The translations under genes were made by a program, and so were the position numbers. DNA of 32,000 nucleotides from Candidatus Nitrospira inopinata (GTDB lineage Bacteria; Nitrospirota; Nitrospiria; Nitrospirales; Nitrospiraceae): assembly GCF_001458695.1 (NCBI RefSeq), contig NZ_LN885086.1, forward strand, positions 3,180,001-3,212,000, written 5' to 3'. The notes below the pieces were generated by a model, which was not told the origin of the DNA, did not search any database, and was given only the letters and a program-made list of their open reading frames with translations. This document shows, one piece after another, positions 6,031 to 31,172 of the stretch. The first letter of the stretch is position 1. Each line of letters starts with the position of its first letter.

Positions 6031-6040
6031 CACCCGAGGG

Positions 6041-6226: not shown

Positions 6227-6393
6227 GGCTCCCTCGTTCACACCTTCATTGAAGCAAGGTCTTTTCGCGAGAAAGCATGGCACAGCCCTTCTGGCAATTG
6301 CAAGGATGGCGCGCCACGCAACGGCACCCTCCCTTTCTCTTCTCAAAGGAGGATTGCTTGACTCGGTACGGCCCGGCCGCATAGGATGGCCAC

Positions 6394-6864: not shown

Positions 6865-6966
6865 TCGGGAAGGCGCCGCTCCCAGCATAATCAAGGCACG
6901 ACGGAAGGGACCGGAAGACACCGTTCTTTCCCCGTCTGTCACCATCGCCGCCGCGACGGCATGCCG

Positions 6967-15062: not shown

Positions 15063-16349
15063 TTACTTGCCGACCGGCACGTTCTCCGTTCGCTTGACGA
15101 TCTCGATCGGTTGGAAGACAGGGTCCTGGGAGCCTTTGGAGGATTCAGCTTCGACCCTTTCAAGAAAGGAGGCCGGTCCCGTAATCGGCCCGTAATTCAA
15201 GGTGACTTCGACGTCAAAGGTGCGGGTGTCTTTCGGCGTCGGGAAGGAAAAGGTTTCGACTCGCATCTCTTCGGGTTTCAGCACCGTATCGTCCAGGACT
15301 TTCACCGCTTCAAAATCGAACACGGTCTTATCCCCCTTGGCGTTCAGGTAGGTTCTCCCATAGGTCCTGCTGTCCGCAAAGACCGTCTTGAGATTCTTGC
15401 CTTTGACTTCAAGGTTCAACATGACGGTGGCCCATCCAGGATGAGTGGTCGGCAAATTGTGCGGCACCAAACTTTGCACGGTCACCCTGACCGTTGTCTT
15501 CTCTCCCTCAACCTGCGTGTACACGTCCAACTTGGCCGCTTCCTGGCGCAGCTTGCCGATGCGGCCCGGGAACGTATGGTTGGCCACCTTGCGCTTTTTC
15601 TCCCCGTTGGCCGATTCGCCGACCTGTTCGGGCATGTGACAATACTGGCATTCCCTCCCGACCTTCACCGCCCGGCTCTTATCCCAGTCGCCCAGCAAGT
15701 CGTTGGCCTTTCCGAGATTGACCGCGGACGGCACCGATTGGTGGCAGTTGAGACAGAGATCGGACTTCTGAAACACGTCCGCCTCTTTCGATTGGTGGGC
15801 CAGGTTTTGGACGGCGTCTTTGTAGGGGCCGTATAAGATCTTGCTGTCGGTCTCATAGTTCGGCTCCGGCGGATGTTTCGTGCGATCCACCTGTTTGATC
15901 AAATGACACTGTGAGCAAGCGACTCCGTCGAGCGACGGGTCGCCGGACATGGTTTGATCGATAAACAATGGAACGTGATCCGGAGCCGCACGGACGTGCG
16001 GGGCATGGCACCGGAAGCAAAGACTTTTGTCTTTACCGCCGGGCGACTTGAGAAACAGATCGAGAGAGGCGCGGAACGCGGGGGAATGAATGGACTTTGA
16101 GAGGGGCGACAGTTCCCATTCCTCGAACACCCGCTCATGGCACCGTTTGCACTTGTTTGAATGGGGGAAGGCCTTTTCGACGATCGCCTGCGGCCTGGGG
16201 TCCTGCGAAGCTCCTTCAGGCACCCAGCCGGCAAGAGCACAGAACCAAACGGTCAACGCGACGATCGACGCGACGGGTCGATAGCCGGACCCGGTACGGC
16301 CATCCATTATCTTAACGACCTTGTTTTCCAAACGGCGTTCGGGGGTCAT
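15063..16349 (-). CDS. Pentahaem c-type cytochrome with a non-haem C-terminal domain
   Basis: Five CxxCH motifs: CKRCH, CFRCH, CSQCH, CLNCH, CQYCH. N-terminal hydrophobic anchor or signal (PVASIVALTVWFCALAGWV). About 170 C-terminal residues have no Cys or His motifs and look beta-rich. Paralogue of the next gene. Confidence 0.85.
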   Translation of the reverse strand: MTPERRLENKVVKIMDGRTGSGYRPVASIVALTVWFCALAGWVPEGASQDPRPQAIVEKAFPHSNKCKRCHERVFEEWELSPLSKSIHSPAFRASLDLFLKSPGGKDKSLCFRCHAPHVRAAPDHVPLFIDQTMSGDPSLDGVACSQCHLIKQVDRTKHPPEPNYETDSKILYGPYKDAVQNLAHQSKEADVFQKSDLCLNCHQSVPSAVNLGKANDLLGDWDKSRAVKVGRECQYCHMPEQVGESANGEKKRKVANHTFPGRIGKLRQEAAKLDVYTQVEGEKTTVRVTVQSLVPHNLPTTHPGWATVMLNLEVKGKNLKTVFADSRTYGRTYLNAKGDKTVFDFEAVKVLDDTVLKPEEMRVETFSFPTPKDTRTFDVEVTLNYGPITGPASFLERVEAESSKGSQDPVFQPIEIVKRTENVPVGK

Positions 16350-16442
16350 CGTCCCGCAACCGGTTTATCGTCACGCATGACCTCCCCCCTCATTCCATTC
16401 GTTCTCGTCATGATCGGCTTGATCGATTGCGTTTCGTCCTGA

Positions 16443-17753
16443 TTACAACGCCTTTGCGCGGTACGTCAGCATGCGCGGTTTCGCATAGTCGTCGATGATT
16501 CGACCGGCCTCATCCCGCTCCTTGTCGGAACGCAACGTGGACAGATACTTTTCCCTCAGCACCGGATCGGGAGTCGGAATAAGCGCATAGGTCAGCACCG
16601 CTTCCACGAACGCGGGGGTCACGCCGTCGGGGAGCGTCAAGGCAAACGGCACCTTCCTGGTGTTGCCTCCCTTGATGAAGGGGTCGGGAATCGGGCCGCG
16701 TAGAATCTTGTCGTACGGCAATCCAAATCGTTTGATCTCTTCGGCCAATACTCTCCCCTGAGCGTCCTTGGCCGTCACGACCAGAAAGAATTGCTTCAAG
16801 ACCGGGTCTCCGTCGGGAAAACTGTGCGGAAGACTTCCGATCTTGACCAGCGCGGTTCCCTCGAGCGCCCCCCCGGCGCGTTTCGCATCGATGTCGATGC
16901 GTGGCGTCCATTCGGCCTGGAGATTGCGGTTCCTCAGCATGGTGCCGGCTCCCACTACGCCTCGAAACCAATGACGCCCGATGGCCCTGGTGATGGCTCC
17001 CCGCCTTGAAGTCGAGCTGCCGGTCGAGGGTTCCATGTGGCAATCTTGACAGACCATGCCCGCAAGAATTTCTCCGGGCAGCTCCTTTTGCGTCACGTCT
17101 TTCACCTTGTCGAAATGACACGCCGCGCAAAAGGCCGCTTCACGAAACACCGGCGCCTGCGCCGCCTGATGGACCAAGTTCTCTTCAGGGTCGGCAAACG
17201 GCCCATAGAAGACGGGACCCGGTTTGATCCTGAACGTCGGCGGTGGATTCGGCGTTTGCTCGACGGCGTGAATCAGATGGCACGATGCGCAGCCGATGCC
17301 CTCGACAAGAGGCCGACCAGCCAAAATCTGCTCCGTGATGCGTTCCGCGTACCGGGGGAAGACCGCGGCGGCGGGAATGTGGCACGAAAGACAGCGACTG
17401 CGTTCGTCCGGAGTCGGATTCGTCTGAACCCACAACCCCAAGACCGTCCGAAACACGGGGGACTCCGACGACGTGCCGTGCAATAACGCCGCGTCGATTC
17501 GCCCGAACGTTTTCAAATCCGGCGTCTGCTCTCTGACGCCCTTCCATTCTTCATAATGTCGCACGTGACATTGCTTGCAGTCTTCCGATCTGACGAAAAC
17601 TTTTTCAATCTCGCTCACCCACCCGGACGTCTTCTCATCCTCCGACTGTCGGGCCGTCATCTGTGCCTGACCCCCCTCGACCGACAGGACGAGCAGCGCA
17701 AGCAAAACCAGCATCCCGATCTCCCTGGCAGCCCCCACCCGGCGCACCCGCAT
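16443..17753 (-). CDS. Pentahaem c-type cytochrome with a non-haem C-terminal domain (paralogue)
   Basis: Five CxxCH motifs: CKQCH, CLSCH, CASCH, CAACH, CQDCH. They are spaced as in 15063..16349 (for example YGPFADPEENLVHQ versus YGPYKDAVQNLAHQ). I prefer the ATG at 17753 (MRVRRVGAAREIGMLVLLALLVLSVEGGQA signal), because the track start at 17819 would overlap the upstream gene. Confidence 0.85.
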   Translation of the reverse strand: MRVRRVGAAREIGMLVLLALLVLSVEGGQAQMTARQSEDEKTSGWVSEIEKVFVRSEDCKQCHVRHYEEWKGVREQTPDLKTFGRIDAALLHGTSSESPVFRTVLGLWVQTNPTPDERSRCLSCHIPAAAVFPRYAERITEQILAGRPLVEGIGCASCHLIHAVEQTPNPPPTFRIKPGPVFYGPFADPEENLVHQAAQAPVFREAAFCAACHFDKVKDVTQKELPGEILAGMVCQDCHMEPSTGSSTSRRGAITRAIGRHWFRGVVGAGTMLRNRNLQAEWTPRIDIDAKRAGGALEGTALVKIGSLPHSFPDGDPVLKQFFLVVTAKDAQGRVLAEEIKRFGLPYDKILRGPIPDPFIKGGNTRKVPFALTLPDGVTPAFVEAVLTYALIPTPDPVLREKYLSTLRSDKERDEAGRIIDDYAKPRMLTYRAKAL

Positions 17754-17796
17754 ACAAGCCCCCCGGCGTATTCCGTTCAGACCTCGTCGACGTCCG

Positions 17797-18234
17797 CTAA
17801 TCCCGCTTGCAGCCGACAAAATGGAAATTCACGCCCCATCCGACCGGATCGCCGGGATCGGCCGGTTCATACGTCCCGACGGTGAAATTGCAGCTCTTCA
17901 TCGCCTTCTTCAAGGCCAATCCGAACTCCGTCATGTTCCGAATTTCCTGTTTGTCGATTTCCTTGATCACCGACCGAACCTTGATGCCGGCGTAGTCCGC
18001 CCGTGAATTGCCGATGACTTCGAACACCGCCACGCCTTGCGGCCGTTGGAGCTTCAGCTCCCGTTGGATCTCTTCATCCACGGCGCCGACCACGACTCCG
18101 AACTCTTCTCCCAGCCGAGCCGCTTCCTCTTCCGTCATGACCTCGGTCCGCGCCGCGTCGTCGGCGACCGCGAGATCGGCGGCCAGCAAGACGGCGAACA
18201 GCACCAGCGCCGGTCGGGACCATCTTGTTTTCAT
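17797..18234 (-). CDS. Secreted PDZ-like domain protein (145 aa)
   Basis: Signal peptide MKTRWSRPALVLFAVLLAADLAVA. The core FGVVVGAVDEEIQRELKLQRPQGVAVFEVIGNSRADYAGIKVRSVIKEIDKQEI follows the PDZ pattern seen in DegP/HtrA PDZ domains, although the usual GD and G positions are substituted. Confidence 0.55.
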   Translation of the reverse strand: MKTRWSRPALVLFAVLLAADLAVADDAARTEVMTEEEAARLGEEFGVVVGAVDEEIQRELKLQRPQGVAVFEVIGNSRADYAGIKVRSVIKEIDKQEIRNMTEFGLALKKAMKSCNFTVGTYEPADPGDPVGWGVNFHFVGCKRD

Positions 18235-18241
18235 TCGCCCT

Positions 18242-19072
18242 TCAGTTCGGAAGCGGATCGATATTCAGTTGAAACCACGGCGCCACGGCCTTTTGGCCGT
18301 TGCGCTCTTTGTTCTCCCCGTTCCATACGGCGAATGAGACGGCTTGAACATGGCCGGGAATCAGTTTCGCTTCGTTCTCTTGTTCCTCGCTCGCGAGCGA
18401 TCGGTACATGACCACGCGCCAAACTCCGTCCTTCCACAGCGCCTTGCCCTGCACGCGACCTTGTTTCTCCTTCGTCGTCAACGTGCTGAATCCGCCCCCG
18501 ATCAAGTCTTCCACCGAAGACACCCGGCGCGGGATCACTTCGAACGTTCGCACGCCGCCTTCTTTTTTCTCCGAAGCCCGAGCCGCTCGCCGGTCGATGT
18601 CGCTCTGCCAATCCGCCTTCCAATGCCACATGTTGATGTAGTGGTCCAGTTGGCCCATGCAGAAGAACGCCGGGGCGTCGCCGAGAGGAAGGCCGATCGC
18701 CACTCCGTCCCGGAACGTTCCCGGCGTAAGCCTGTCGTTTTTCGTATTATCCTGCCACTCGAGCAGAAAGGCGATCTCCCGTCCGTTGTGGACGGATCGC
18801 ACGTCGAGCGTCCGGGCGGACGGCTCCGGCCACGCCGGGCGCGTAATGATTTGCCCGCTCAAGGGGATCGTCATCCGCGGGATCCTGCTCCACGCGGCAT
18901 CGTCCGGGGCGACGGGGACGTCGCCTTCGATCAAATGAGAACGGATGCCGATTCCCTCCGAACTGACGAGAGGAATTCCGAATCCCCCAAGAAGGCCGGC
19001 CGTGAAGAGGAGACCGACGAGGCACGCGAGCAAGCGGGGACGGGAACTGAAGAGGTTTGTCATTCGCACCAC
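18242..19072 (-). CDS. EB_dh-domain haem-b protein (gamma subunit of type II DMSO-reductase-family enzymes; NxrC/ClrC/EbdC-like), copy 1
   Basis: N-terminal signal or anchor (LLACLVGLLFTAGLLGG). Contains FFCMGQLDHYINMWHWKADWQ, SSVEDLIGGGFSTLTT, WRVVMYRSL and FAVWNGENKERNGQKAV. The conserved Met (in CMGQ) and Lys (in ERNGxK) sit where the family has its Met/Lys haem ligands. GTG start at 19072 has AAGG 6 nt upstream; ATG 19063 is an alternative. Confidence 0.75.
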   Translation of the reverse strand: MVRMTNLFSSRPRLLACLVGLLFTAGLLGGFGIPLVSSEGIGIRSHLIEGDVPVAPDDAAWSRIPRMTIPLSGQIITRPAWPEPSARTLDVRSVHNGREIAFLLEWQDNTKNDRLTPGTFRDGVAIGLPLGDAPAFFCMGQLDHYINMWHWKADWQSDIDRRAARASEKKEGGVRTFEVIPRRVSSVEDLIGGGFSTLTTKEKQGRVQGKALWKDGVWRVVMYRSLASEEQENEAKLIPGHVQAVSFAVWNGENKERNGQKAVAPWFQLNIDPLPN

Positions 19073-19163
19073 GAAGAACCTTCATTCCCCGTCGCGCTGC
19101 GTCCAGCAAACGCAATTCTTCGGCACGCCGGGCGAGATGCGCCTGCACGGGGCGCGTATGGGT

Positions 19164-20456
19164 TCATGCGAGCCTCAGCCGGCGTATCCTGTTTTCTCCC
19201 CGTTCGCAGATGTAGAGACATCCCTGTGAATCCATCGCCAACCCCACGGGAGCGTTGACCACCGCCTCGACGCCGAGGAGGCCCTCGCCCGGCTTCAACA
19301 GACCGGCCGACTCTTTGGCGACAAACCGCGCGGCGCCGCAGCCGCCCATGTGATTGTCCTCATAGCCGCTGTCGCCGGTGCCCGCCACCGTCGTGATGAC
19401 GCCGGTCGCGGCGTCCACTTTCCGAACTCGATGGTTCATCGTGTCGGAGATGTACAGGTTGTTCTCGCGATCGATCGCCACCGCTTCCGGCGCATGCAGC
19501 ATGGCCCTGACGGCCGGCTTGCCGTCCCCGTCGTACCCGTATCGACACACTCCGGCCACGGTGCCGATCACCCCGGTCCGCCGATCGATCTTTCTGATTC
19601 GGTTGCTGCCCTTGTCCACAAGGTACAGATCGCCGTTCCGATCGACGGCGAGGCCGACGACGTCGTACAACCGCGCTTCCAGAGCCGGTCGCCCATCGTC
19701 AAGATACAGCGACAGATCCAATCCGTCGGAGCAAACCGGCATGAGCCACCCCTGATCATCGCTGAAATCGATGCCGATGGCGTCGCCGGAGAGCACGACC
19801 AGATTGCGGGCGACCAAAGGCTGATCGCGGGCTTCGTCTTCCTCCGTCCAGATTCCGGCGATCGTCGTCACCATGCCGGTCTTGGGGTCATACCGCCTCA
19901 CGCGGTGCGCCTGGGTATCCGCGATATAGAGCACGTCATCCTGATCGAACGCGATGGCCGCTGGCCAGGTGAGATTCACCTCCGTGGCGGGACCGTCGCC
20001 GTTAAAGCCATGCAGTCCCGTTCCGACCACCGTCGTAATGATGCCGGTATCGCGGTCCACCCTGCGGATGCGATTGCTCCCCGAGTCACAAATGTACAGG
20101 TTGTTTTGCGAATCAAACGCCACGTCCAACGGCAGGTACAGTCCGGCCTCGCCGCACGGGCCGTCATCTCCGCAATAACAGGTTTCGCCGATTCCGGCAA
20201 AATTGTGAATCGTCCCGGTCTGAAGATTGATGCGGCGGACGCGATCCGAACCGGACTCCGCGAAGTAGAGCCATTGTTCGTCTTTGTCCAGCGCGGCGTG
20301 GTGAGGAAGCGGAATCCCCGCTTTGACCGCCGGCTTGCCGTCGCCCGTGCTGCGGGCCTTCCCGTTGCCGGCAAACGTGTCGATCAGCCCGACGGCCGTT
20401 CGCGCACCCGTTTCTTTCGACGTCAATTGCGTGTCCACGGGACGGTTTCCCCTCAC
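19164..20456 (-). CDS. NHL-repeat beta-propeller protein
   Basis: Repeated NHL signatures: LYICDSGSNRIRRV, LYIADTQAHRVRRY, LYLVDKGSNRIRKI, LYISDTMNHRVRKV, LYICERGENRIRRL and LYFAESGSDRVRRI. No N-terminal hydrophobic signal is visible. GTG start 6 nt after the tatA stop. Confidence 0.9.
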   Translation of the reverse strand: MRGNRPVDTQLTSKETGARTAVGLIDTFAGNGKARSTGDGKPAVKAGIPLPHHAALDKDEQWLYFAESGSDRVRRINLQTGTIHNFAGIGETCYCGDDGPCGEAGLYLPLDVAFDSQNNLYICDSGSNRIRRVDRDTGIITTVVGTGLHGFNGDGPATEVNLTWPAAIAFDQDDVLYIADTQAHRVRRYDPKTGMVTTIAGIWTEEDEARDQPLVARNLVVLSGDAIGIDFSDDQGWLMPVCSDGLDLSLYLDDGRPALEARLYDVVGLAVDRNGDLYLVDKGSNRIRKIDRRTGVIGTVAGVCRYGYDGDGKPAVRAMLHAPEAVAIDRENNLYISDTMNHRVRKVDAATGVITTVAGTGDSGYEDNHMGGCGAARFVAKESAGLLKPGEGLLGVEAVVNAPVGLAMDSQGCLYICERGENRIRRLRLA

Positions 20457-20462
20457 AAACGG

Positions 20463-20744
20463 CTACGCGGGCGGGGCAGGTTGCACACCGGCTGGCGGCT
20501 GGCTCACAACGGGCGCTTGAGCCGACGGGGGGCTCGCCGGCTGGGGAGGAGTCGCCTGTTGTTGCGCTACGGCCTGAGCCTGGGCCTCCGCCTCGATCGC
20601 GTCCGCCTCGTGCACGGACTTTTTGAACCCTTTGATGGCTTTCCCCAACCCCTCTCCCAATTGGGGCAACTTGCCCGCGCCGAAAATAATCAGCACGATG
20701 AACAGAATCAGCACCAACTCCGTGAATCCGAGACTTCCAAACAT
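20463..20744 (-). CDS. tatA: Twin-arginine translocase subunit TatA/E
   Basis: [42 protein letters not shown] shows the canonical TatA TM helix, FG hinge and amphipathic helix. The C-terminal tail is Ala/Gln/Pro-rich. Confidence 0.9.
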
Positions 20745-20769
20745 GGGCGCGCTCCTTCGTAAAGATGGA

Positions 20770-21591
20770 TCAGGCTCCGGACTCGTCTTTCACTTTTTTG
20801 GCGAACCGCTCGCGCAATCGCTTGCGAACTTCTTCGGCTTTGTCGAACATTTTGCACTTATCATAGACGTTGATCAGATTGTAATACGCCAACGGCTCGT
20901 CGGGATTGTGCTCGACGGCGTTTTCCATGACGGTCATCGCCAAATCGGTCTTTTTATGATTGAGCGCGACCTCCATCAGCTTATAACTGGACTCCAAATG
21001 TTTCGGGTCCAGCTCGAGCGTTCTGAGATAACACTGGATCCCCATATCGATCGTGTTGTAATCCGACACTTGGGGATTGTCCAACTCGATATAGACGCCC
21101 CCCAAGTTGTACCACGCGATGGGGTCTTCCGGCGTGATTTCGACCAGACGCTCGAAAAATCCCTTCGCCTCCATGTACTTCTTTTTGTCCGCGTACAGGC
21201 GCCCCAGGTTGAACAACGCCAACACGTCGTGGGGGAACACCTCCAAGGCGTGTCGGAACTGGGCTTCCGCCTCATCCATCATGTTCTTCGTCGCGTAGAT
21301 CGTCCCCAGATTCGAATAATACATGGCCAGCGACCGGTTCATTTCCGCCCGCAAACCTTCAGCCATTTCGATGGTTTTCTTGACCTCCATCAACGCATCG
21401 TCGAGTCGTCCCTGTCTGAAATACAGCTCTCCGAGCCGGCTGCGCGCGTGAAAATCGTCCGGCTCTTCCGCGAGCAACTTTTCAATGCCGGCGATTTCTT
21501 CTTCGGGCGACAGCGGTTGATCGCCCGGATCAACGGCCGCCGAGCCTGGCGAGGGCGGCGTGGGTTCGGACATCGGGATCTGTGTCTCCAT
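20770..21591 (-). CDS. Tetratricopeptide-repeat protein
   Basis: 273 aa with several 34-residue TPR-like units (for example [94 protein letters not shown]). Confidence 0.85.
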
Positions 21592-21640
21592 CGGAAAGCG
21601 TTCCTTTTCTGTTCGAGTATCGTTCCCTCAACCGTACCGG

Positions 21641-22762
21641 TCAGGCTTCCTTCGCGACCAACGGATCCGACGATCCCAGCAACGCCGCCTCGGTCGCCGT
21701 CTGCGATCCTGCGACCGCCTGCCTCGCCCGATCGGTCGTCAACAACATCATACCAAGGATCACCATCAACGTCAGATTGGAAAACATCAGGGCATAGCCC
21801 GCGATGAACATCAGACCGATGCCGTACCCCGCCAGGCGTCCCATCAGCAACAGTTTCACGACGCTGTACCCCCAACACAGGAAGCCGACGAGATAGAGGG
21901 CGAAGGGGAGATAAAACGTGTAGCCCATGCCGAATTGGAAAATCCACCCGATTCCCTGCGAGGCTTGTCGAGCGGCGGAAGCCAAGGCCGGATCGTACCG
22001 TTCCAACAGGTAATCGAAAAAAATCAGCAGCAGAAAGACGGCGCCGCTTACAGCCCAAAACCACATCGCCCGACTCCGTTGACGCCGGTTCTTCACACGA
22101 AGGGAGAGTCCGCGTCCATAGGCGGCGTAGACCAGCATGCTCGCCAACACCATCAGCGCCTCACCGGCTCGATGCAACTCATAGACCAAAGGAGGCGCGT
22201 CCAACGTTCCGGCCAAACTATAGGCCGTGGAGACGATTTGGTAGTACAACCAGCCTCCGATGCCCAACACATACACGGTCACCAACAGGCGCTTGATTCG
22301 TTCCGGATGGGAAGCCCAGTACTCCACCGTCAGAAACGCGAGCGTCATCAGTGCCACGCCGTTGTAGATTACGGCGCCCAGCATTCCCGGCTGCACGAAC
22401 AAAAACGCAACGGTCAGCGCCAACAGCAGGACGGTGGACGCCATCGCCGATTTGGCCGGCCACCCGGCATCGGACCCCATGCCGCGCTGCGTCATGATCA
22501 CGACAAGGCTCAGGAACAGGAGCACGGCCACGATATTCAGCAACCACGCTCCGACCGCCGTCAACGTGGTGAACGTGGGAGTGATCCAGGAATGCTCCGC
22601 CGCCATCTTGCTCAGGTGCATTCCCAAGCGGGACGCCAGTCGATACAAAACCAGTTCGAGAAACGAGGCCAACAGCGTGAGTTTAACGGCGTACTCAAAG
22701 AGGGGACCGAAATCCCCGATCTTTCCCGGCGGCCGATTGCCCAGAAGAATGGAGGCCTTCAT
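21641..22762 (-). CDS. Polytopic integral membrane protein of unknown family (about 9-10 TM segments)
   Basis: 373 aa, dominated by hydrophobic stretches of about 20 residues separated by short charged loops. No Cys or His cofactor motifs recognised. ATG at comp(22760-22762). Confidence 0.75.
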   Translation of the reverse strand: MKASILLGNRPPGKIGDFGPLFEYAVKLTLLASFLELVLYRLASRLGMHLSKMAAEHSWITPTFTTLTAVGAWLLNIVAVLLFLSLVVIMTQRGMGSDAGWPAKSAMASTVLLLALTVAFLFVQPGMLGAVIYNGVALMTLAFLTVEYWASHPERIKRLLVTVYVLGIGGWLYYQIVSTAYSLAGTLDAPPLVYELHRAGEALMVLASMLVYAAYGRGLSLRVKNRRQRSRAMWFWAVSGAVFLLLIFFDYLLERYDPALASAARQASQGIGWIFQFGMGYTFYLPFALYLVGFLCWGYSVVKLLLMGRLAGYGIGLMFIAGYALMFSNLTLMVILGMMLLTTDRARQAVAGSQTATEAALLGSSDPLVAKEA

Positions 22763-22788
22763 GACGAATACGCCTTGAGTCGGCGAGT

Positions 22789-22818
22789 ATTATATCCATC
22801 GCAAAAAAATGAGGTCAA
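22789..22818 (-). promoter_or_regulatory. Sigma-70-like promoter for the membrane-protein/TPR/tatA/NHL... unit
   Basis: On the minus strand: TTGACC (comp 22813-22818), an 18-nt spacer, then TATAAT (comp 22789-22794). It lies about 27 nt upstream of the ATG at 22762. Confidence 0.5.
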
Positions 22819-22832
22819 CGCCGGACGGCCTC
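22803..22832 (-). terminator. Hairpin plus U7 tract after the radical SAM gene
   Basis: Minus-strand RNA reads GAGGCC-guccggcguu-GACCUC (one mismatch), followed by UUUUUUU (the plus-strand A-run at 22803-22809). It starts about 20 nt after the stop at 22853. The stem is short, so termination may be partial. Confidence 0.4.
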
Positions 22833-22852
22833 AAACCGACCGGATCACGAAC

Positions 22853-24634
22853 CTACGAACCGATCGCCTGAGGCGTTTGAATGCCGGCTTCCTTGGCTCG
22901 TCCGATATACAGCAATCCGTCGGCCATCGAGTAGTTGAACGGCAGTTCGCAGACCACCTCGCTGATCCGCTCATAGACGTATTGATAGACCCGTTCGGCT
23001 TGATCCGGCGTCATGCCGCCTTGTACCTCGTAAAAAAATCCGAGACTCAGATCCTCGGACGACGGCCGCATGATCCGTCGAATACCGTATTCGGCCGGAT
23101 CGCTCATGATCGGCGCCTCTTTCTCCAAATCGAACAGACAGGGCTGACAAGAGAAGCCGAACGACTCATGGAGCCTGCGGTTTTCCACGATGAAATTCAT
23201 GGTCTCCAGGGCCTCGTCCTCCGTTTCCGTCGGGAATCCCACGATGATGTAGCAGTGGACGGCAATCCCCAGATCGACGCAGTCGTCGGCGATGCGCCGG
23301 ACCCACTCCTGCTTGATTCCTTTTTTCATCAAATCCATGACCCGCTGATTGAACGATTCCAGCCCGAACACGATCTTCAAGCATCCGGCGTCCCGCATGA
23401 GCGCCAACAAGTCGCGCGTGAGATTTTTTTCGAACCGCATTTCGCAGGTCCATTTGACGTCGAGCCGCTTCTCGATCATCTGCTGGCAGAGCCGCCTGGT
23501 CGGCGCCAGCGCGAAACATTCGTCGGTGAAGAAAAAATGCCTGGCTCCGTACCGCTGCTTGAGCCATTCCAGCTCGTCGATCGTTCGTCCCGGATCTTTT
23601 TGCCGGAAGTTTTGATGATCCAGCGTGAGGGCGCAGAACGCGCAATCCTTGTAATAACAGCCGCGGGAGAACTGAATCGGCAGCACCGGTTCGGGCGACA
23701 GATAGCGATCGAGCGGAAATCCGTCGTAGTTCGGAGCGGGGAGTCGATTGACGTTCTCCGAGTAGAAGGGTTGATTGACGATGATCTTGCCGTTCTGCCG
23801 ATGAATCAAGTTGGGCACCTTGCCGTACTCTTTTTTACCGGCCAACTGGTTGATCAGTTCCAGCAACGCGGTCTCGCCCTCGAAGACGACGATGTCGTCG
23901 GTCAGTTCAAACAGGCTGGGGCACCGACGAACGTTATCGACCAGACGGGTAAAGATGCTCCCGCCGATCGTGACGTGCAGGTCCGGCGCCGCTTCTTTGA
24001 TCAGCTTGCAAAGCGTGAGGCCGGGAATAATCTGGGACGTGGCGGTAATCGACACGCCGATCAAGTCCGGGCCGTTGCCGATGATCGACGGAAGAAACAT
24101 CTCCCGCATGAGCGTGCGATAGGGATTTCGCGCTTCGTCGCACACGATCTTCATCAAGTCTTTCGAGGAATAGATCGAATAGTCGCCGAACTGATTGTCC
24201 ACCACCGTCAATCTCGTCGGAAAATAAGCGGACGAGATCAGCTCCAGCCACTTGTCGATCATGAACAAACTGGCGCGATAGGCGTCGAGATCGTAAAACC
24301 CCTCTCCCCGCAACGTCGCCTTGGCCAATTCGATCCGTTCGGCCAGATAGGCGAATCGATCGAGCGACTCGGTGACTTTGGCATAATGCTCCCGGCTCCC
24401 GTGCCCGGTGTCACCGGATGCCGTTCGCTCCAGCCGGCGATGCAAATCGATCAACTGCTGATAGACCCTCGCCCCATAGGTCCTGGTCAGCATGCGATCC
24501 AACAATTCGATGCCGAGATCGCGTTGCGACACGTCGGAGACGCCGCCCTGCCGAAGGAAACCTGTCAGGGACGGAAGACTCAAATACGGTTGGGACGGAT
24601 GCCACGTGGGTGGGAAAAGCAGCGAAACTTTCAT
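22853..24634 (-). CDS. B12-binding-domain radical SAM enzyme
   Basis: 593 aa. The N-terminal region resembles a cobalamin-binding Rossmann fold (IGVSITATSQIIPGLTLCKLIKEAAPDLHVTIGGSIFT). The radical SAM core has the Cys triad FSRGCYYKDCAFCAL (comp 23633-23659), which I checked against the DNA. FFFTDECF and KIVFGLESF follow. Confidence 0.88.
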   Translation of the reverse strand: MKVSLLFPPTWHPSQPYLSLPSLTGFLRQGGVSDVSQRDLGIELLDRMLTRTYGARVYQQLIDLHRRLERTASGDTGHGSREHYAKVTESLDRFAYLAERIELAKATLRGEGFYDLDAYRASLFMIDKWLELISSAYFPTRLTVVDNQFGDYSIYSSKDLMKIVCDEARNPYRTLMREMFLPSIIGNGPDLIGVSITATSQIIPGLTLCKLIKEAAPDLHVTIGGSIFTRLVDNVRRCPSLFELTDDIVVFEGETALLELINQLAGKKEYGKVPNLIHRQNGKIIVNQPFYSENVNRLPAPNYDGFPLDRYLSPEPVLPIQFSRGCYYKDCAFCALTLDHQNFRQKDPGRTIDELEWLKQRYGARHFFFTDECFALAPTRRLCQQMIEKRLDVKWTCEMRFEKNLTRDLLALMRDAGCLKIVFGLESFNQRVMDLMKKGIKQEWVRRIADDCVDLGIAVHCYIIVGFPTETEDEALETMNFIVENRRLHESFGFSCQPCLFDLEKEAPIMSDPAEYGIRRIMRPSSEDLSLGFFYEVQGGMTPDQAERVYQYVYERISEVVCELPFNYSMADGLLYIGRAKEAGIQTPQAIGS

Positions 24635-24696
24635 ACGATCGGTCGCTCCGTGTGCGTCGAATAATCGGGGTGATGGAATGAAACGGCCTCTCGTGG

Positions 24697-24726
24697 GTTA
24701 TAGCCTCCGACCGGATTGAAATGCAA
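24697..24726 (-). promoter_or_regulatory. Sigma-70-like promoter for the radical SAM gene
   Basis: On the minus strand: TTGCAT (comp 24721-24726), an 18-nt spacer, then TATAAC (comp 24697-24702). It lies about 60 nt upstream of the ATG at 24634. Confidence 0.4.
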
Positions 24727-24781
24727 CCCCGCTCAAGGTCTCGCCATCACGCACGGTTTGCGCTCCCCGGCGGTTGGACAG

Positions 24782-24833
24782 AAAAAAGGCCCCGGATCGA
24801 ATCGCCACTTCTTCGTGACGACGACCCGGGGCC
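24782..24833 (-). terminator. Rho-independent terminator after EB_dh copy 2
   Basis: On the minus strand: GGCCCCGG (comp 24826-24833)...CCGGGGCC (comp 24788-24795), with inner pairing TCGTCAC/GTGGCGA, followed by UUUUUU (plus-strand A-run 24782-24787). A second GC-rich hairpin (CGGCC...GGCCG, about 24850-24877) sits just after the stop codon. Confidence 0.6.
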
Positions 24834-24880
24834 TTCAAACGGCGCTCGGACTGTACGGCCCGCCCTTCGGCTCAGGCCGA

Positions 24881-25831
24881 CTACAGCTTGAGCGTAAACC
24901 AGGTGGAGAGCGACTTCATGCCGTTCCGTTCGATATTGGCGCCATCCCACACCGCAAAGGCAATCGGGATGGACATGCCGGCTTTGAATTGCGTATCGTT
25001 CGCGTCGCCGGTTTCCAACGCTCTCTTCACGACCACGCGCCAGGTCGGGCCCGTATAGGCTCCGCCCTTCACGGAGCCGGCCGGCTCCCATACTCCATAC
25101 CCGACGACGTCCTGATGGACCTGCGTGGTCAACGTGCTGAAGCCGTTGGCATTGAGATCCTCCACGGAACTCACCCGCAAGGTGGGATCGGACATGATGT
25201 TGCCCGACCAGATACCGGGATTGAACGGTCCAAGGCTCCGTCCGATGCGGTCGGGATAGGTCACCCCACCAGCCGGCTCTTCATAGTAGAAGTCCCAAAA
25301 AATGCCGGGATATTGATCATCGACGTCCCAAATTCCCGCGCTGTCTTTCCCCAGATCCTTCTGCCACTCGGCGTTCCAACGCCAAATATTGGTGGTTCCG
25401 CCGGATTGTCCCATACATTGAAAGGGCGGCGCTCCCGACGTATTGACCGGAAACATCACCGCAACCTGGTCTCTGAAATCTTGCGGACCGATCGCCGTAT
25501 CGTTCTTCGTCTGATCAAGCCATTCCAGTCGCAGGCCCAACTCTTTGCCGTTCGTCATGGCCTTGACGAAGATGGATTTGACGGCGATGTTCGGGTGCAT
25601 CGGCGTTGTAATCAATTGTCCGCTCAACGGCACGACGACGCCGGGCACGCTTTCCCAAATCGGGTTCGCCCCGTCCATCGGAATGGCTCCCTTGATCATT
25701 TTGGTCGGGATCGTGACCGGTTGACTGACGGCCAACGGCACCTGTCCGACCGTCAGAACCGCGCCGACGGCGAGGACAGAGAGCAGCACCGCCCATACCA
25801 CACGTTTGCTGGTCGTCTGCACTATGCGCAT
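24881..25831 (-). CDS. EB_dh-domain haem-b protein (NxrC/ClrC/EbdC-like gamma subunit), copy 2
   Basis: Signal: MRIVQTTSKRVVWAVLLSVLAVGAVLTVG. Contains PFQCMGQSGGTTNIWRWNAEWQ, SSVEDLNANGFSTLTT, WRVVVKRAL and FAVWDGANIERNGMKSL, a clear paralogue of 18242..19072 with an insert of about 40 aa. ATG at 25831 is preceded by GGAGGGGG. The track's TTG start at 25852 would translate the Shine-Dalgarno sequence. Confidence 0.8.
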   Translation of the reverse strand: MRIVQTTSKRVVWAVLLSVLAVGAVLTVGQVPLAVSQPVTIPTKMIKGAIPMDGANPIWESVPGVVVPLSGQLITTPMHPNIAVKSIFVKAMTNGKELGLRLEWLDQTKNDTAIGPQDFRDQVAVMFPVNTSGAPPFQCMGQSGGTTNIWRWNAEWQKDLGKDSAGIWDVDDQYPGIFWDFYYEEPAGGVTYPDRIGRSLGPFNPGIWSGNIMSDPTLRVSSVEDLNANGFSTLTTQVHQDVVGYGVWEPAGSVKGGAYTGPTWRVVVKRALETGDANDTQFKAGMSIPIAFAVWDGANIERNGMKSLSTWFTLKL

Positions 25832-25920
25832 AAACCTACCCCCTCCTCTCAACTAGAGATAGATAGAATGGTCTCCCTTCAAACAAACATAGGGCTCACT
25901 CGGAGCCAATCACCGGAACG

Positions 25921-26892
25921 TCAGGCCGTTCCAACGGGGCCCGTATTACCGCTGTCTTGTTCCTTCTCTTTGATTTCCATGAACGACTGCGCGCCCACCT
26001 CGTTGAGCAAGAGACTCAGCTCATTTCCCTGATCCTGGGCGCCGCACTCGTAGGTCTGTCCTTCCGGAGAACTGAACGTCGCCGGCCGATAATCCGTCTC
26101 CGTATAGGGTTGCGGCGTCACGCCCAAGAAGGCGGTTTCAAAGTCGATCCAATCGGCCGTCATGTCGGCCACCAGCTTGAAGAGGCCGTAATCGGCCTTC
26201 TTGGCAAGCATGCGGCAAAACAGGGGAACCCACCGACCGATGTGATTCTTGACGAATTTCTTCTGGGCCTCCACGACGATCTCCGTTTTCTCCGCGCCGT
26301 CGTGGCACCGTGAGTAGGACTCTTTATAGGCAAGAAAATGCATGAACTCGAACTCGACGCTCAGATGATCGAGTCGTTCATGGATGTCTTTGGACAACTC
26401 CACTCCGAACGCCCGATAGAAGCCGGCGATATCGCCCATCACGTGCGATTGCGCGAACACGTGATCGTTGCCGAACAAGGTTTCATACGGTGGGCAGTCG
26501 AGCGTAATCACGTTGCTGAAGACCCGGCGATGCTCCGCTTGCAGATCGCTGAGTTGCCAATTGGCGCATTCGGAGGTGCTCAGCGCCTCCACCAGCTCGA
26601 TCTGTTTCTTGATCGCCGCCAACGCGCGGACGGCCCGTTGGCCCCCTTGTCCATCCAGCATGGCCTCCAACGTCTCCAGCGCGGCGCGACCGTCTTCGAC
26701 GAACTCACCGCACCGCAGATAATCAAGAAATTCCTCGTCTTCCGGATACAGCATGCTCCAGGAGATGAGCAGATAGATCTTGCTGCGATTCAACGCCCGT
26801 TCAACCGCCGGGGAGTCTTTGACCGTGGGGGAAGCCTGAATCACGGCGCCTGGGGAAGGGGATACGTTCGGCACAGGCTGTTTGATCGTCAT
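25921..26892 (-). CDS. TorD/NarJ/DmsD-family redox-enzyme maturation chaperone (type II DMSO reductase delta-like)
   Basis: RSKIYLLISWSMLYPEDEEF, LQAEHRRVFSN...CPPYETLFG, VMGDIAGFYRAFGVEL and ERLDHLSVEFEFMHFLAYKE follow the NarJ/TorD family pattern. ATG at 26892 is preceded by GGAGAA. It carries a C-terminal extension of about 70 aa beyond the usual family length. Confidence 0.8.
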   Translation of the reverse strand: MTIKQPVPNVSPSPGAVIQASPTVKDSPAVERALNRSKIYLLISWSMLYPEDEEFLDYLRCGEFVEDGRAALETLEAMLDGQGGQRAVRALAAIKKQIELVEALSTSECANWQLSDLQAEHRRVFSNVITLDCPPYETLFGNDHVFAQSHVMGDIAGFYRAFGVELSKDIHERLDHLSVEFEFMHFLAYKESYSRCHDGAEKTEIVVEAQKKFVKNHIGRWVPLFCRMLAKKADYGLFKLVADMTADWIDFETAFLGVTPQPYTETDYRPATFSSPEGQTYECGAQDQGNELSLLLNEVGAQSFMEIKEKEQDSGNTGPVGTA

Positions 26893-27105
26893 CGCGTATT
26901 CTCCGGCCCGTCGGGTCGATCGCCTCACCGGCGACTTCCGAAACGACGCGCCAGCCGGCCAACCTCTCGAACCGAAACCTTGGTATGTATATGAAATGGC
27001 CTGAAGATTGTCAAGGGAGAACCATCCTCTCCTGGCGAAAAACCCTCTTGCGATGCCTGGACACCCTTCGACAATCGATGGACATCGGAGAACGCATCGC
27101 TTCTG

Positions 27106-27705
27106 TCATGACTTCACCTGCGTGCGCCGACCGTGCGGTATTACGCGGATCGCCACGTGATCATTGACCGTTTTGCAGATTTTCTCGCATATCCCGCACC
27201 CTACGCACCTATCCTGCACAATCGCCACCTGCATCAGGTAAAAATCCATCGCCAGCGCCTGCGTCGGACAGCGGGACACACAGGCGTGGCAACCTTGTCC
27301 CGCCGTGCAGCGAGAGTGGGATACGACCGCGCAGCCCATTCGGACCTCGTGAATCCCACCGACGGGCTCCAGGGCCCCCGTTTGGCACGAGGCGATACAA
27401 GGAAAATCTTCACACAACAGGCACGGAGCTTGATCCGCGAACAAGATCGGCGTGGCGTCACGCTCATGGGCCACGATCGCCCCCGGCGGACAGTCTTTGA
27501 TGCAGTCGCCGCACCGCGTGCACAGTTCCAGAAACAGTGCCTCCTCGACGGCGCCGGGCGGGCGCAACCAATCGGTCCGGATCGTCGGCGCCTTCTGCAC
27601 CGGAGCGGCGTCCACTTGTTTGGAGAACTCCCGCGCGGCTTTCGCGACGGAACGAACGGAGTCCTTGAGAAAATCGCGTCGGCCGTATGAGGGATCGGGT
27701 GTCAT
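27106..27705 (-). CDS. Tat-signal 4x[4Fe-4S] ferredoxin, NapG/MauM-like
   Basis: Twin-arginine leader MTPDPSYGRRDFLKDSV. The LRPPGA motif is followed by four Cys clusters: CTRCGDCIKDCP, CLLCEDFPCIASC, CTAGQGCHACVSRCP and CVGCGICEKIC. The start is uncertain (ATG 27705 or GTG 27774) and neither has a clear Shine-Dalgarno sequence. Confidence 0.85.
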   Translation of the reverse strand: MTPDPSYGRRDFLKDSVRSVAKAAREFSKQVDAAPVQKAPTIRTDWLRPPGAVEEALFLELCTRCGDCIKDCPPGAIVAHERDATPILFADQAPCLLCEDFPCIASCQTGALEPVGGIHEVRMGCAVVSHSRCTAGQGCHACVSRCPTQALAMDFYLMQVAIVQDRCVGCGICEKICKTVNDHVAIRVIPHGRRTQVKS

Positions 27706-27778
27706 GGGATGGCCGTGTCCGTTATGCACGAATATCACGCATCGTCGGAGGCGATGTTCTCGCTTTCCTCTCACGGCG

Positions 27779-27803
27779 GGTGAAGAGCGCGTGTGCTCTC
27801 ACC
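27779..27803 (-). other. Strong intercistronic hairpin between the HExxH gene and the ferredoxin gene
   Basis: Minus-strand RNA reads GGUGAGAGC-acacgc-GCUCU(U)CACC: 9 bp with one bulge and no U tract. It begins 9 nt after the stop at 27812. Confidence 0.4.
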
Positions 27804-27811
27804 GCCGGCAC

Positions 27812-28822
27812 TCACGTCACGCCGTCGGCGCGCAGTTTATACACTTCCACGCAGCGATCGCAGGCTCCAAACTCCACATCCCACCCCGGATGATTGTCCC
27901 GAATGTAGTCCAAGACGTACGACTCGACCTTGTTCGTCAAATCTTCGACCCAAGAATAGGTGGGAAAGCGACAGAGCGGACAGGGAAAGCCCGGCATGAG
28001 CATGATTTTGTTGCTCTGGACCTCCGGAACTTCGCCTCCCTCGACCTCGACGGCCCGCTCCATGACGCGCAGGGTGTCGGCGGCCATCTCGATCAGTTCG
28101 GAGTGAGTGAAGTACGAGGTCTGCCACAGCCCTTCGAAGACCGACCTCAATTGAAGCGGTGGAATTTTTCGATACCAGGACCGGAATTCTTTGAACCGAT
28201 CCTCCTTGCTCAGCATCGGTTCTTTGCCCGCGGCAACCAGTCGACTGTCCACGCTCAGGCTCCACAATACGCGATACCGTTGCAAGATCAGCGTTTCCTC
28301 GCCGGGATTCTGCCCCACTTTGGTGTCCGGATCGTATCCGAACGCCGGGTCGATCATGTCCGAGATATGCATCAATTCGTGGCGGCAGTACCGCGTCAGC
28401 GCCGGGTCATAGAATCGCCGGGGGATCAGCTTGATCCCGACGCCTTTCATCCCCTTTTCCTCAAACGAACGGGCCAACTCCTTTTCGACCGGTCCCCATT
28501 TGCGCAGAATATCGACCCCTTCCTGATCCTCTTTGAGCACGCCCTTGACCAAAACGATGCCCACCTTTTCCCTGAGCAGCGGGTATTCGTTGAACGAGTC
28601 GCGGATGATGTCCGCGAACCCCCAGGTCCCGAAGAGATACTGATAGAGCTTCTTAAACTCGCCTTCCCGATCTTCCAGGGCGAACTTCTCGTAGATGGGG
28701 TCGGCATACTCATGGAACTCCTTGTAGTAAGTGGGGTCCCCTTCCCGCTCCGTCTTCTCGATGAACGAATCGATCACTTCTTGAAGCAGGGCGGGCTGAA
28801 ATCTGATCTCCATAAACGGCAA
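27812..28822 (-). CDS. Hypothetical HExxH-motif protein with a C-terminal CxxC...CxxC zinc ribbon
   Basis: 336 aa with normal composition. HELMH lies at comp(28367-28381), which I checked against the DNA. The C-terminus has CPLC...CDRC. The start is either TTG 28822 or ATG 28813 (MEIRFQP). No family recognised by eye. Confidence 0.65.
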   Translation of the reverse strand: MPFMEIRFQPALLQEVIDSFIEKTEREGDPTYYKEFHEYADPIYEKFALEDREGEFKKLYQYLFGTWGFADIIRDSFNEYPLLREKVGIVLVKGVLKEDQEGVDILRKWGPVEKELARSFEEKGMKGVGIKLIPRRFYDPALTRYCRHELMHISDMIDPAFGYDPDTKVGQNPGEETLILQRYRVLWSLSVDSRLVAAGKEPMLSKEDRFKEFRSWYRKIPPLQLRSVFEGLWQTSYFTHSELIEMAADTLRVMERAVEVEGGEVPEVQSNKIMLMPGFPCPLCRFPTYSWVEDLTNKVESYVLDYIRDNHPGWDVEFGACDRCVEVYKLRADGVT

Positions 28823-28970
28823 CGATCCTTTCCAGCGGAGTGATGGTCAGGGGGTCGCAAGGACTCCCCTCGCAAGATGAACGCTCGTCTTCCAACGCCG
28901 GGGGACATCCGACCGAAGGCTGCTTGACTTGCCTGTCGCGCATCTCTTACGATCGCCGCGAGCGATGAAA

Positions 28971-29000
28971 ATTATACAGACCGCTTCGATAGCCAATCAA
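28971..29000 (-). promoter_or_regulatory. Sigma-70-like promoter for the HExxH/ferredoxin/chaperone/EB_dh unit
   Basis: On the minus strand: TTGATT (comp 28995-29000), an 18-nt spacer, then TATAAT (comp 28971-28976). It implies a leader of about 145 nt. Confidence 0.35.
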
Positions 29001-29032
29001 GGATCTCCGCCGACGGGCGAAGAAGCAACTAC

Positions 29033-30270: not shown

Positions 30271-30271
30271 T
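30146..30271 (-). pseudogene. Remnant copy of the C-terminal 40 codons of the Res-like restriction gene
   Basis: The minus frame reads MGWWGAAVNVDGTYGKWRYAVVKKVADIPILFDSNFGNLLP*. The intact gene ends ...ERWVAAVNADGTYGKWRYAVVKKVADIPILFDSNFGNLLP* at 31053. There is no similarity upstream of about 30270. Confidence 0.8.
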
Positions 30272-30391
30272 CAAGGCATGGCAACTGCGAAGGCAGCACC
30301 GGCGATGAATCGGGTCTGGGTAACGGACCGGATAACCCTGATCGACACTCTGAGCAACGGCATAGAGCGTGCGTTGTGGGCTGCCACACGC

Positions 30392-30670
30392 TCACCTGAA
30401 CAGGTCATAATCGTAAATTGAGTGATGATGACCGATATACCGGAATTCGACGTGATTGGGACCAAGGAACTTGAAGACGATGCGATAGGCTCGATCGACT
30501 CGAAAGCTCCAGACTTCATGATGTTTGGGATGCAATTTCTCGCTGTGGAGGGAGGGATGAAACGGATTCTCTCGGAAAAGATCGGTCTTCGCGGCGGCTT
30601 TTCGTTGAATCGGCTTGGAGAGTTTCCTAAATAGTCTATCGAACGTCGCCGTCGTCGAGAGTTCGAGCAT
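30392..30670 (-). CDS. RelE/ParE-superfamily type II toxin
   Basis: 92 aa. FDRLFRKLSKPIQRKAAAKTDLFRENPFHPSLHSEKLHPKHHEVWSFRVDRAYRIVFKFLGPNHVEFRYIGHHHSIY follows the ParE/RelE toxin pattern. It lies 6 nt downstream of a small partner gene. Confidence 0.8.
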   Translation of the reverse strand: MLELSTTATFDRLFRKLSKPIQRKAAAKTDLFRENPFHPSLHSEKLHPKHHEVWSFRVDRAYRIVFKFLGPNHVEFRYIGHHHSIYDYDLFR

Positions 30671-31043: not shown

Positions 31044-31172
31044 CGATGCTCCTCACGGCAACAGGTTGCCAAAATTAGAATCGAATAGAATCGGAATGTC
31101 CGCAACTTTCTTGACGACGGCATACCGCCACTTTCCATATGTGCCATCGGCATTGACCGCCGCCACCCATCG
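30974..31172. repeat. Direct repeat copy B (remnant WD40 3' end, spacer, and the intact Res 3' end)
   Basis: See copy A. It also contains an internal 14-bp tandem duplication, CTCTGGGAAGGGGG x2 (30997-31024). Confidence 0.85.

Follow-up and report, generated by a model that had tools for sequence, protein, structure and literature searches.

The window analysed here is a 32,000-nt stretch of the genome of Candidatus Nitrospira inopinata, and it carries a run of 13 genes on the minus strand between positions 15063 and 28822. This run is very probably the conserved nxrC locus of Nitrospira species, that is, the accessory locus of nitrite oxidoreductase (NXR), which supplies the periplasmic NXR except for its catalytic subunits NxrA and NxrB. 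Nitrite oxidoreductase produces almost all of the nitrate on Earth, and the cluster is where candidate parts for the assembly of NxrABC, for its attachment to the membrane and for its link to the respiratory chain are encoded in Nitrospira. A preliminary description, made from the DNA sequence of the window, had proposed a candidate undescribed electron-transfer system. The locus is instead an already reported one and our finding adds no new system. What is new is that nxrAB is physically inserted in the cluster of some species; that the gene for an HExxH/Zn-ribbon protein, which heads the nxrC block in Nitrospira, adjoins nxrA in Nitrospinae as well as in genomes whose NxrA is of the Kuenenia type; that genes for a radical SAM enzyme, a membrane protein, an NHL protein and the HExxH protein travel together in a distant genome; and that four conserved promoters and one strong terminator account for published expression steps.

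The 13 open reading frames (ORFs) are orthologous to NIDE3268-3281 of N. defluvii and NITMOv2_3614-3627 of N. moscoviensis, with the same products, order and orientation. In a published supplementary table the N. defluvii genes run from two pentahaem cytochromes (NIDE3268/3269) through PDZ (3270), NxrC (3271), NHL (3272), TPR (3274), membrane (3275), radical SAM (3276) and chaperone (3279) products to a protein listed as unknown (3281) (PMC12342949), and this order is identical to the gene order in the window. The same 2025 comparative study describes NITMOv2_3614-3631 as a conserved cluster whose products are two putative pentahaem cytochromes, NxrC, TorD and several unknown proteins, and counts it in a gene set specific to NXR-encoding Nitrospirales and diagnostic of nitrite-oxidising Nitrospirales (PMC12342949). 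The grouping of nxrC with TorD-like and NapG-like genes is also in the literature (PMC8115096; PMC6606698). NITMOv2_3624 (nxrC_2, 34.2 kDa) ranks within the top three N. moscoviensis genes by expression, the TorD-like chaperone gene NITMOv2_3625 adjoins it, and nxrC_1 is NITMOv2_3617 (PMC6606698). The radical SAM protein occurs with identical sequence on at least 24 public contigs carrying the same neighbours, and among species representatives Nitrospira sp. JZ-4_Bin198 comes closest, with a radical SAM protein that is 99% identical. Several points of the preliminary description held up: the ORF map confirmed 13 co-directional genes with short gaps (-23 to 246 nt), profile searches with Pfam and NCBIfam together with motif counts confirmed the domain content, and the likeness it saw to accessory genes of NXR and type II dimethyl sulphoxide (DMSO) reductase loci is supported.

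Both haem-b proteins of the cluster belong to the EB_dh family (PF09459; E 3.3e-30 for NxrC_2, ORF 24881-25852, and 2.5e-31 for NxrC_1, ORF 18242-19072). The pair just missed the cut-off of TIGR03477 (142.8 and 149.1 bits against 169.85), and the two proteins are 39% identical to each other. Residues 51-321 of NxrC_2 match subunit C of the Kuenenia NXR (7B04_C) with an E-value of 3.9e-33. NxrC_2 also matches the gamma subunit of ethylbenzene dehydrogenase (EBDH; 2IVF_C), with alignment of the haem ligands Met108 and Lys201 (EBDH numbering), and both axial ligands are kept in all 70-72 orthologs of each paralog. A loss of a haem ligand in NxrC_1 through a Met-to-Gly change was considered and rejected, since another Met is affected and the equivalent of Met108 is present in both paralogs when they are aligned with 2IVF_C. 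NxrC_2 begins with a signal sequence, as judged by eye, and in N. moscoviensis the transcript level of nxrC_2 equals that of nxrAB (PMC6606698).

In order to compare the locus between species, we scanned one genome per GTDB species with an alignment of the radical SAM protein, which gave 415 relatives, and studied the best 80 of them by tblastn with all proteins of the window. These best 80 were all from Nitrospira or Nitrospiraceae. Wherever the contig was long enough, the 13 genes kept their order and orientation across the 80 species, which agrees with the earlier view of the cluster as one coherent unit; the HExxH and nxrC_2 genes were the most conserved and the membrane-protein and ferredoxin genes the least. 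Three informative exceptions had nxrAB, or the end of nxrB, directly upstream of the radical SAM gene. In Nitrospira sp. CG24C (locus L087) the order is nxrC_2, nxrA, nxrB, radical SAM, so that nxrAB lies between two blocks of the cluster. In a member of the Nitrospiraceae (L069) the genes for a histidine kinase and a sigma54 regulator are followed by nxrA and nxrB directly before the radical SAM gene, and a third locus (L075) starts with the end of nxrB and continues with the radical SAM gene. Several further contigs begin 50-400 nt from the radical SAM gene, as would be expected of assembly breaks at multicopy nxrAB genes. Since nxrAB adjoins or interrupts the cluster in some species, the catalytic subunit that appeared to be absent is NxrAB, encoded elsewhere in most Nitrospira. 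The preliminary description had allowed that the block might prove to be an accessory region already described beside nxrAB with roles assigned; it is indeed published, nxrAB or its nxrB end is adjacent in 3 of the 80 species, and roles have been assigned to NxrC and the chaperone only. As a separate observation, nxrA of L087 is present as two overlapping ORFs of 443 and 661 amino acids (5301-8194), its tblastn match is split in two, and residues 265-481 of NxrA are left without a match; the gene is either a pseudogene or affected by a frameshift or assembly error in the metagenome-assembled genome. The regulators of L069 (906-4513) are a CHASE3-HAMP-GAF histidine kinase and a sigma54-dependent response regulator.

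The HExxH protein provides a second physical link to NXR. Because the best 80 of the 415 radical SAM relatives were confined to Nitrospira and Nitrospiraceae, other genomes were reached through distant homologs of this protein. The family has 375 detectable members; among Nitrospira loci with a substantial part of the gene on the contig identity is 85-99%, and more distant homologs (33-44% identity) are found in several different gene neighbourhoods. In three loci (L092, L091 and L134) the homolog is encoded directly upstream of nxrA. The order in L092 is an Rrf2 regulator, the HExxH protein and a Tat-signal molybdopterin protein (Tat, twin-arginine translocation); the 536 residues available of this last protein give 903 bits against Kuenenia NxrA. 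In L089 the HExxH gene lies 4.4 kb upstream of nxrA (1,922 bits against 7B04_B), nxrB and a chaperone gene; we do not call genomes of this type anammox because one member of an L089 protein cluster is labelled Candidatus Poribacteria. On two Nitrospinae contigs the last coding sequence before the contig end, about 190 nt after the HExxH gene, gives MRLNRRKFLQ...VGNPLEAYPD, which can be aligned with the N-termini of NxrA proteins. An identification of the HExxH protein with kustd1699, suggested by the homolog directly upstream of a Kuenenia-type nxrA, was rejected, as kustd1699 is a blue copper protein (PMC11897245). Lücker 2013 names a "putative zinc finger" protein that Kuenenia, Nitrospira and Nitrospina have in common, and the HExxH protein may be this one. 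In both L089 (9381-9806) and L092 (4466-4825), which have a Kuenenia-type NxrA, the gene immediately before the HExxH homolog encodes an Rrf2-family regulator. Some Rrf2 regulators sense nitric oxide or nitrite.

The HELMH motif of the window protein is at ORF residues 148-152, or 145-149 counted from the ATG start as in our alignment, and falls in a predicted helix. Across homologs from Nitrospira, Nitrospinae and genomes with a Kuenenia-type NXR, E146, H149, D152, D155 and four Cys are invariant and H145 is nearly so, giving the family pattern HExxHxxDxxD plus PCPLC...C-x-RC. An AlphaFold2 model built from a 24-sequence alignment had a mean predicted local distance difference test (pLDDT) score of 88. 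With Foldseek it found no fold match in the PDB (best E 0.26, TM-score at most 0.14), Pfam gave no match at E<=10, and a profile search of PDB sequences gave none over the HExxH region. Since the protein resembles no known zincin in sequence or fold, we do not class it as a zincin or peptidase.

A fourth lineage joins this protein to other members of the cluster. In locus L093 the genes for a radical SAM protein (52% identical), the membrane protein (30%), a GIY-YIG insert, the NHL protein and the HExxH protein follow one another on one strand, with the NHL gene directly upstream of that for the HExxH homolog. The radical SAM protein itself has the cluster-binding motif CX4CX2C, not CX3CX2C; C326, C331 and C334 are invariant, and of the 150 family representatives nearest to it about 137 carry a CX4CX2C motif. 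Its match to the B12-binding domain (PF02310) reached 31.6 bits, just under the cut-off of 32.1. The best NCBIfam matches were to C-methyltransferases of peptides, including ribosomally synthesised and post-translationally modified peptides (RiPPs), and to PhpK-type P-methyltransferases, all under curated cut-offs (top score, TIGR03975, 155.7 bits against 281.85). The family is very large, with 2,591 representatives at E<1e-30, and among 1.84 billion representatives the top-scoring one from outside Nitrospira was from Nitrospina watsonii (45% identity, E 6e-169). For the membrane protein there was no Pfam or NCBIfam match, and its all-helical AlphaFold2 model (pLDDT 69) had no fold match in the PDB. 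A bis-His haem site in this protein was rejected because the L093 homolog retains just one of the two invariant His residues.

The chaperone matched PF02613 (Nitrate_red_del) above the cut-off and TIGR03482 below it (E 1.4e-21, 77.4 bits against 152.3), and by analogy with this family is presumed to be a maturation and Tat-proofreading factor for NxrA. At about 323 residues it exceeds the typical TorD/NarJ length by about 100; the Pfam domain covers ORF residues 111-238, with a further segment on its N-terminal side and a tail of about 65 residues at the C-terminus. The best NCBIfam match of the ferredoxin was NapG (E 2.9e-31), with 108.6 bits for NF007012 (cut-off 269) and 95.1 bits for TIGR00397 (cut-off 178.85). 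A NapH-type membrane partner was not found in the cluster or elsewhere in the window. Because its scores are under the curated thresholds and the window holds no NapH-like gene, we call the protein NapG-like rather than NapG, which is also the literature name for proteins of the NITMOv2_3626 type (PMC8115096). The TatA gene is kept at the same position in Nitrospira loci.

The genes form two blocks. The first comprises the genes for the HExxH protein, the NapG-like ferredoxin, the chaperone and NxrC_2 and is closed by a strong conserved terminator; the second comprises those for the radical SAM enzyme, the membrane protein, the TPR protein, TatA, the NHL protein, NxrC_1, the PDZ-like protein and the two pentahaem cytochromes. 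The terminator after nxrC_2 was confirmed: of 70 distinct orthologous sequences, 63 have a hairpin of -20 kcal/mol or lower ahead of a T-run. The U7 hairpin at 22803-22832, also proposed as a terminator, was not, since it is no more stable than shuffled sequences (z 0.46); the T-run there forms the spacer between the two elements of the conserved membrane-protein gene promoter. Matches to the promoter consensus in the region were not above shuffles (6 versus 4.4), and promoters were assessed by footprints in aligned intergenic regions from about 60-80 species. The three promoters proposed before, upstream of the HExxH, radical SAM and membrane-protein genes, were all conserved; a fourth, upstream of the chaperone gene, had been missed, so that there are probably four transcription units, as judged from sequence conservation, and not three. 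No good match to a sigma54 promoter was obtained either by a scan of the window (TGGCAC-N5-TTGC-type) or by consensus scoring of the intergenic regions of the cluster.

In N. moscoviensis oxidising nitrite, the mean transcript levels, in reads per kilobase per million mapped reads, were 327 for the HExxH gene, 328 for the NapG-like gene, 2,417 for the chaperone gene (rank 40), 18,780 for nxrC_2 (rank 2 of all genes), 376 for the radical SAM gene, 719 for the NHL gene, 352 for nxrC_1 and 424 for the pentahaem gene NITMOv2_3614. The 7-fold rise from the NapG-like to the TorD-like gene and the 50-fold drop past the terminator are explained by the conserved promoters and terminator. For the further 8-fold rise from the chaperone gene to nxrC_2, no conserved promoter was found across 67 species in the spacer of about 90 nt (25832-25920), only the ribosome-binding region; transcript processing or stability is one possibility. 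The spacer contains a small hairpin at 25893-25907 that is not conserved.

Comparison with known systems places the locus close to NXR. The soluble haem-b NXR-C of Kuenenia stuttgartiensis (kustd1699-1713; 7B04) belongs to the same family as NxrC_2 (match given above). Accessory c-type cytochromes are encoded with the NXR genes there as in the window, and in the structural model electrons exit through haem b to an external partner; unlike the window, the Kuenenia cluster has its own nxrA and nxrB, cupredoxins, NXR-T and a bd-like oxidase (PMC8387239). No radical SAM, NHL, TPR or TatA gene is reported from the Kuenenia cluster, whereas the window has all four. Type II DMSO-reductase operons of the EbdABCD type likewise encode an EB_dh haem-b gamma subunit with Met and Lys ligands and a delta chaperone of the TorD/NarJ family, but include the alpha and beta genes, which in our genome are encoded outside the window; the window proteins scored below the cut-offs of the EbdC and EbdD equivalog models. 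The NapGH module shares with the window a Tat-exported ferredoxin with four [4Fe-4S] motifs, but has NapH as membrane partner, and no NapH-like gene lies near the window ferredoxin. According to the literature the N. moscoviensis cluster continues with a two-component system; the window has none and has toxin-antitoxin-like and restriction-endonuclease-like genes after the WD40 gene.

A sequence of events can be proposed on the basis of the Kuenenia structure (PMC8387239) and of general knowledge of type II DMSO reductases. The chaperone would hold the Tat signal of NxrA in the cytoplasm while the molybdenum cofactor and the iron-sulphur clusters are inserted. NxrAB would then be exported by the Tat system, to which the TatA of the cluster may add capacity, and NxrC would be exported by the Sec pathway, bind haem b and dock on NxrB. 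Electrons from nitrite would pass over molybdenum and the chain of iron-sulphur clusters to haem b, and from there to c-type cytochromes, for which the two pentahaem proteins are candidates. A hand-over from haem b to haem c is favoured because an NxrC paralog and both pentahaem proteins recur in N. moscoviensis as a second small block, NITMOv2_4208, 4210 and 4211 (PMC12342949), and because Nitrospina encodes proteins that fuse a haem-b domain with haem-c sites. The HExxH, radical SAM, membrane, TPR, NHL and WD40 proteins are most likely cytoplasmic or membrane-bound assembly and maturation factors for NXR.

Taken alone, the window could also be read as the preliminary description read it, as an undescribed, self-contained system of periplasmic electron transfer with no need of a molybdopterin catalytic subunit. 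Its 32,000 nt indeed contain no NxrA/NxrB-like (alpha and beta), NapH/NrfD-like (quinol partner) or ccm genes, and it is correct that most members have no assigned role. We consider such a system highly improbable, because the locus is the published nxrC cluster and its EB_dh protein is NXR-C-like, because in three species the radical SAM gene directly follows nxrAB or the end of nxrB, with nxrAB between the blocks in one of them, and because the HExxH gene abuts nxrA in other phyla. The label periplasmic does not fit the whole cluster either: the HExxH, chaperone, radical SAM, TPR and NHL proteins and the neighbouring WD40 protein, at least six in all, lack an N-terminal signal, and for this reason about half of the cluster is predicted to act in the cytoplasm. 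It is also unlikely, if less so, that two unrelated loci adjoin here, the first block serving NXR and the second being separate, for example a cytochrome and haem-b module with its own maturation enzymes. The division of the blocks by a strong conserved terminator and separate conserved promoters would suit this explanation, as would the transcription of the second block at a level 25-50 times below that of nxrC_2, the absence of the first block from the 10 kb upstream of the second in L069, and the position of the Nitrospina radical SAM relative among housekeeping genes. However, the second block holds an NxrC paralog with intact haem ligands and its genes are listed as specific to NXR-encoding Nitrospirales (PMC12342949); nxrAB sequence is directly upstream of its radical SAM gene in L069, L075 and L087; L093 joins its radical SAM, membrane-protein and NHL genes to the HExxH gene of the first block; and the top-scoring radical SAM representative comes from another nitrite oxidiser with a periplasmic NXR.

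A more specific proposal, possible but rather doubtful, is that a dedicated maturation line is made up of the second block and the HExxH protein. In it the B12-radical SAM enzyme would modify, most simply methylate, an NXR subunit or an exported haem protein before export; the TPR, NHL and WD40 proteins would be scaffolds, and the membrane protein and TatA would have their place at the membrane. The likeness of the enzyme to peptide/RiPP C-methyltransferases and P-methyltransferases points this way, as do the lack of signal peptides in the radical SAM, TPR, NHL, HExxH and WD40 proteins, the association of radical SAM, membrane-protein, NHL and HExxH genes in L093 and the contact of nxrAB with the radical SAM gene in three species. 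On the other hand, every family score of the enzyme is below the curated cut-off and its family is very large, the examined loci beside Kuenenia-type or Nitrospinae nxr genes have no radical SAM gene, and no such modification is mentioned in the sections consulted of the Kuenenia NXR structure paper, which was not searched exhaustively (PMC8387239). Equally doubtful is the view that the HExxH, radical SAM and membrane proteins with the TPR, NHL and WD40 scaffolds are an uncharacterised maturation pathway specific to periplasmic NXR, which could involve a radical SAM modification of an NXR subunit or of its haem partners ahead of export; if they are, the HExxH protein would have a fold absent from the PDB and be the universal component of the pathway in Nitrospira, Nitrospinae and genomes with a Kuenenia-type NXR.

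Our preferred reading, that of an accessory locus of NXR, has several points against it as well. Roles have so far been assigned to NxrC and the chaperone only, on the basis of homology and expression, and the other cluster proteins are putative partners or helpers of NXR. The roles of the HExxH and membrane proteins are guesses, because neither has a family or fold match. Signal peptides were read by eye and without a predictor. Around the Kuenenia-type nxr genes of L089 there was no sign of a radical SAM, membrane-protein or NHL gene, and the Nitrospina-type radical SAM gene has no cluster genes nearby in 40 marine loci, where it is surrounded by housekeeping genes. In N. moscoviensis all orthologs looked up (8 of the 13) were above the median transcript level. 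The second block was transcribed at the low level given above and from its own promoters, and a stoichiometric complex of its products with NXR is therefore unlikely.

The features of the locus are collected in Table 1. The two pentahaem cytochromes have exactly five CXXCH motifs each and are 27% identical; the one at 16443-17753 has an ExtKL-like match under the cut-off (E 1.9e-17), and the other has weak matches to the pentahaem c552 5ZE8 and to MccSep. The PDZ-like protein is below the Pfam cut-off (E 1.4e-3) and matches the PDZ region of DegP/HtrA with E 3e-9.

Table 1. Genes and transcription signals of the nxrC locus and the adjoining WD40 gene, by position in the window
Feature	Position	Strand	Evidence
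Pentahaem cytochrome c, paralog	15063..16349	-	five CXXCH; Pfam and NCBIfam matches; ortholog NIDE3268
Pentahaem cytochrome c	16443..17753	-	five CXXCH; Cytochrome_C554 E 2.5e-8; ortholog NIDE3269
Small secreted PDZ-like protein	17797..18234	-	signal peptide by eye; ortholog NIDE3270
NxrC_1, paralogous haem-b EB_dh protein	18242..19063	-	EB_dh; ortholog NIDE3271 / NITMOv2_3617
NHL-repeat beta-propeller, no signal peptide	19164..20456	-	NHL E 8.5e-27; ortholog NIDE3272
TatA/E-family Tat translocase component	20463..20744	-	PF02416 (mttA/Hcf106) E 1.1e-16, residues 5-54
Predicted cytoplasmic TPR protein	20770..21591	-	multiple TPR families, E down to 1e-26; no signal peptide; ortholog NIDE3274
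Polytopic membrane protein (~9-11 predicted helices)	21641..22762	-	ortholog NIDE3275 / NITMOv2_3621
Promoter upstream of membrane-protein gene, TTGACC-N18-TATAAT	22789..22818	-	11/12 to consensus; 65/81 distinct orthologous intergenic sequences
Putative class-B (B12-binding) radical SAM enzyme	22853..24634	-	PF04055 E 2.8e-20; ortholog NIDE3276 / NITMOv2_3622
Promoter upstream of radical SAM gene, TTGCAT-N18-TATAAC	24697..24726	-	footprint in 69 sequences; missed by consensus scan
Intrinsic terminator after nxrC_2	24782..24833	-	free energy (dG) -42 kcal/mol, z -6.6, then U6
NxrC_2, soluble haem-b gamma subunit of NXR	24881..25831	-	EB_dh; ortholog NITMOv2_3624
TorD/NarJ-family (type II DMSO-reductase) chaperone	25921..26892	-	PF02613 E 1.7e-21; no signal peptide by eye; ortholog NITMOv2_3625
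Sigma70-type promoter upstream of chaperone gene, TTGACA-N17-TATACA	26985..27014	-	footprint over 66 distinct Nitrospira intergenic sequences
NapG/MauM-like Tat-exported ferredoxin	27106..27705	-	RRDFLK; 16 Cys, four [4Fe-4S]-type clusters; ortholog NITMOv2_3626
Predicted cytoplasmic HExxH (HELMH) protein, C-terminal CPLC...CDRC zinc ribbon	27812..28813	-	ortholog NIDE3281 / NITMOv2_3627
WD40-gene promoter, conserved	28924..28953	+	consensus scan and footprint
Promoter upstream of HExxH gene, TTGATT-N18-TATAAT	28971..29000	-	10/12 to consensus; footprint in 61 sequences
WD40 beta-propeller gene	29033..30136	+	WD40 E 1e-75; divergent from HExxH gene; own conserved promoter

The WD40 gene is a conserved fourteenth member of the neighbourhood; nearly every Nitrospira locus that extends far enough has it, in divergent orientation and with 70-96% identity. 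The G+C content of the window is about 58%, and long ORFs lie antisense to the radical SAM and membrane-protein genes (21560-24664, plus strand, 1,034 amino acids) and to the WD40 gene (28997-30127, minus strand, 376 amino acids). The one long antisense ORF inspected gave no family signal, and these ORFs are probably artefacts of the high G+C content and not genes. One side of the cluster is flanked by housekeeping genes, for an M3 peptidase, a pseudouridine synthase, a flavodoxin-like protein, a DUF192 protein, RelA/SpoT, RecJ, an H+-pyrophosphatase and a methyltransferase. On the opposite side, beyond the WD40 gene, weak Pfam matches mark a ParE/RelE-like toxin (30271-30670, minus strand) and a restriction-endonuclease-like protein (31053-31937, minus strand), which may be a defence or mobile insertion; in another locus (L001) the WD40 side carries PIN and ResIII helicase genes.

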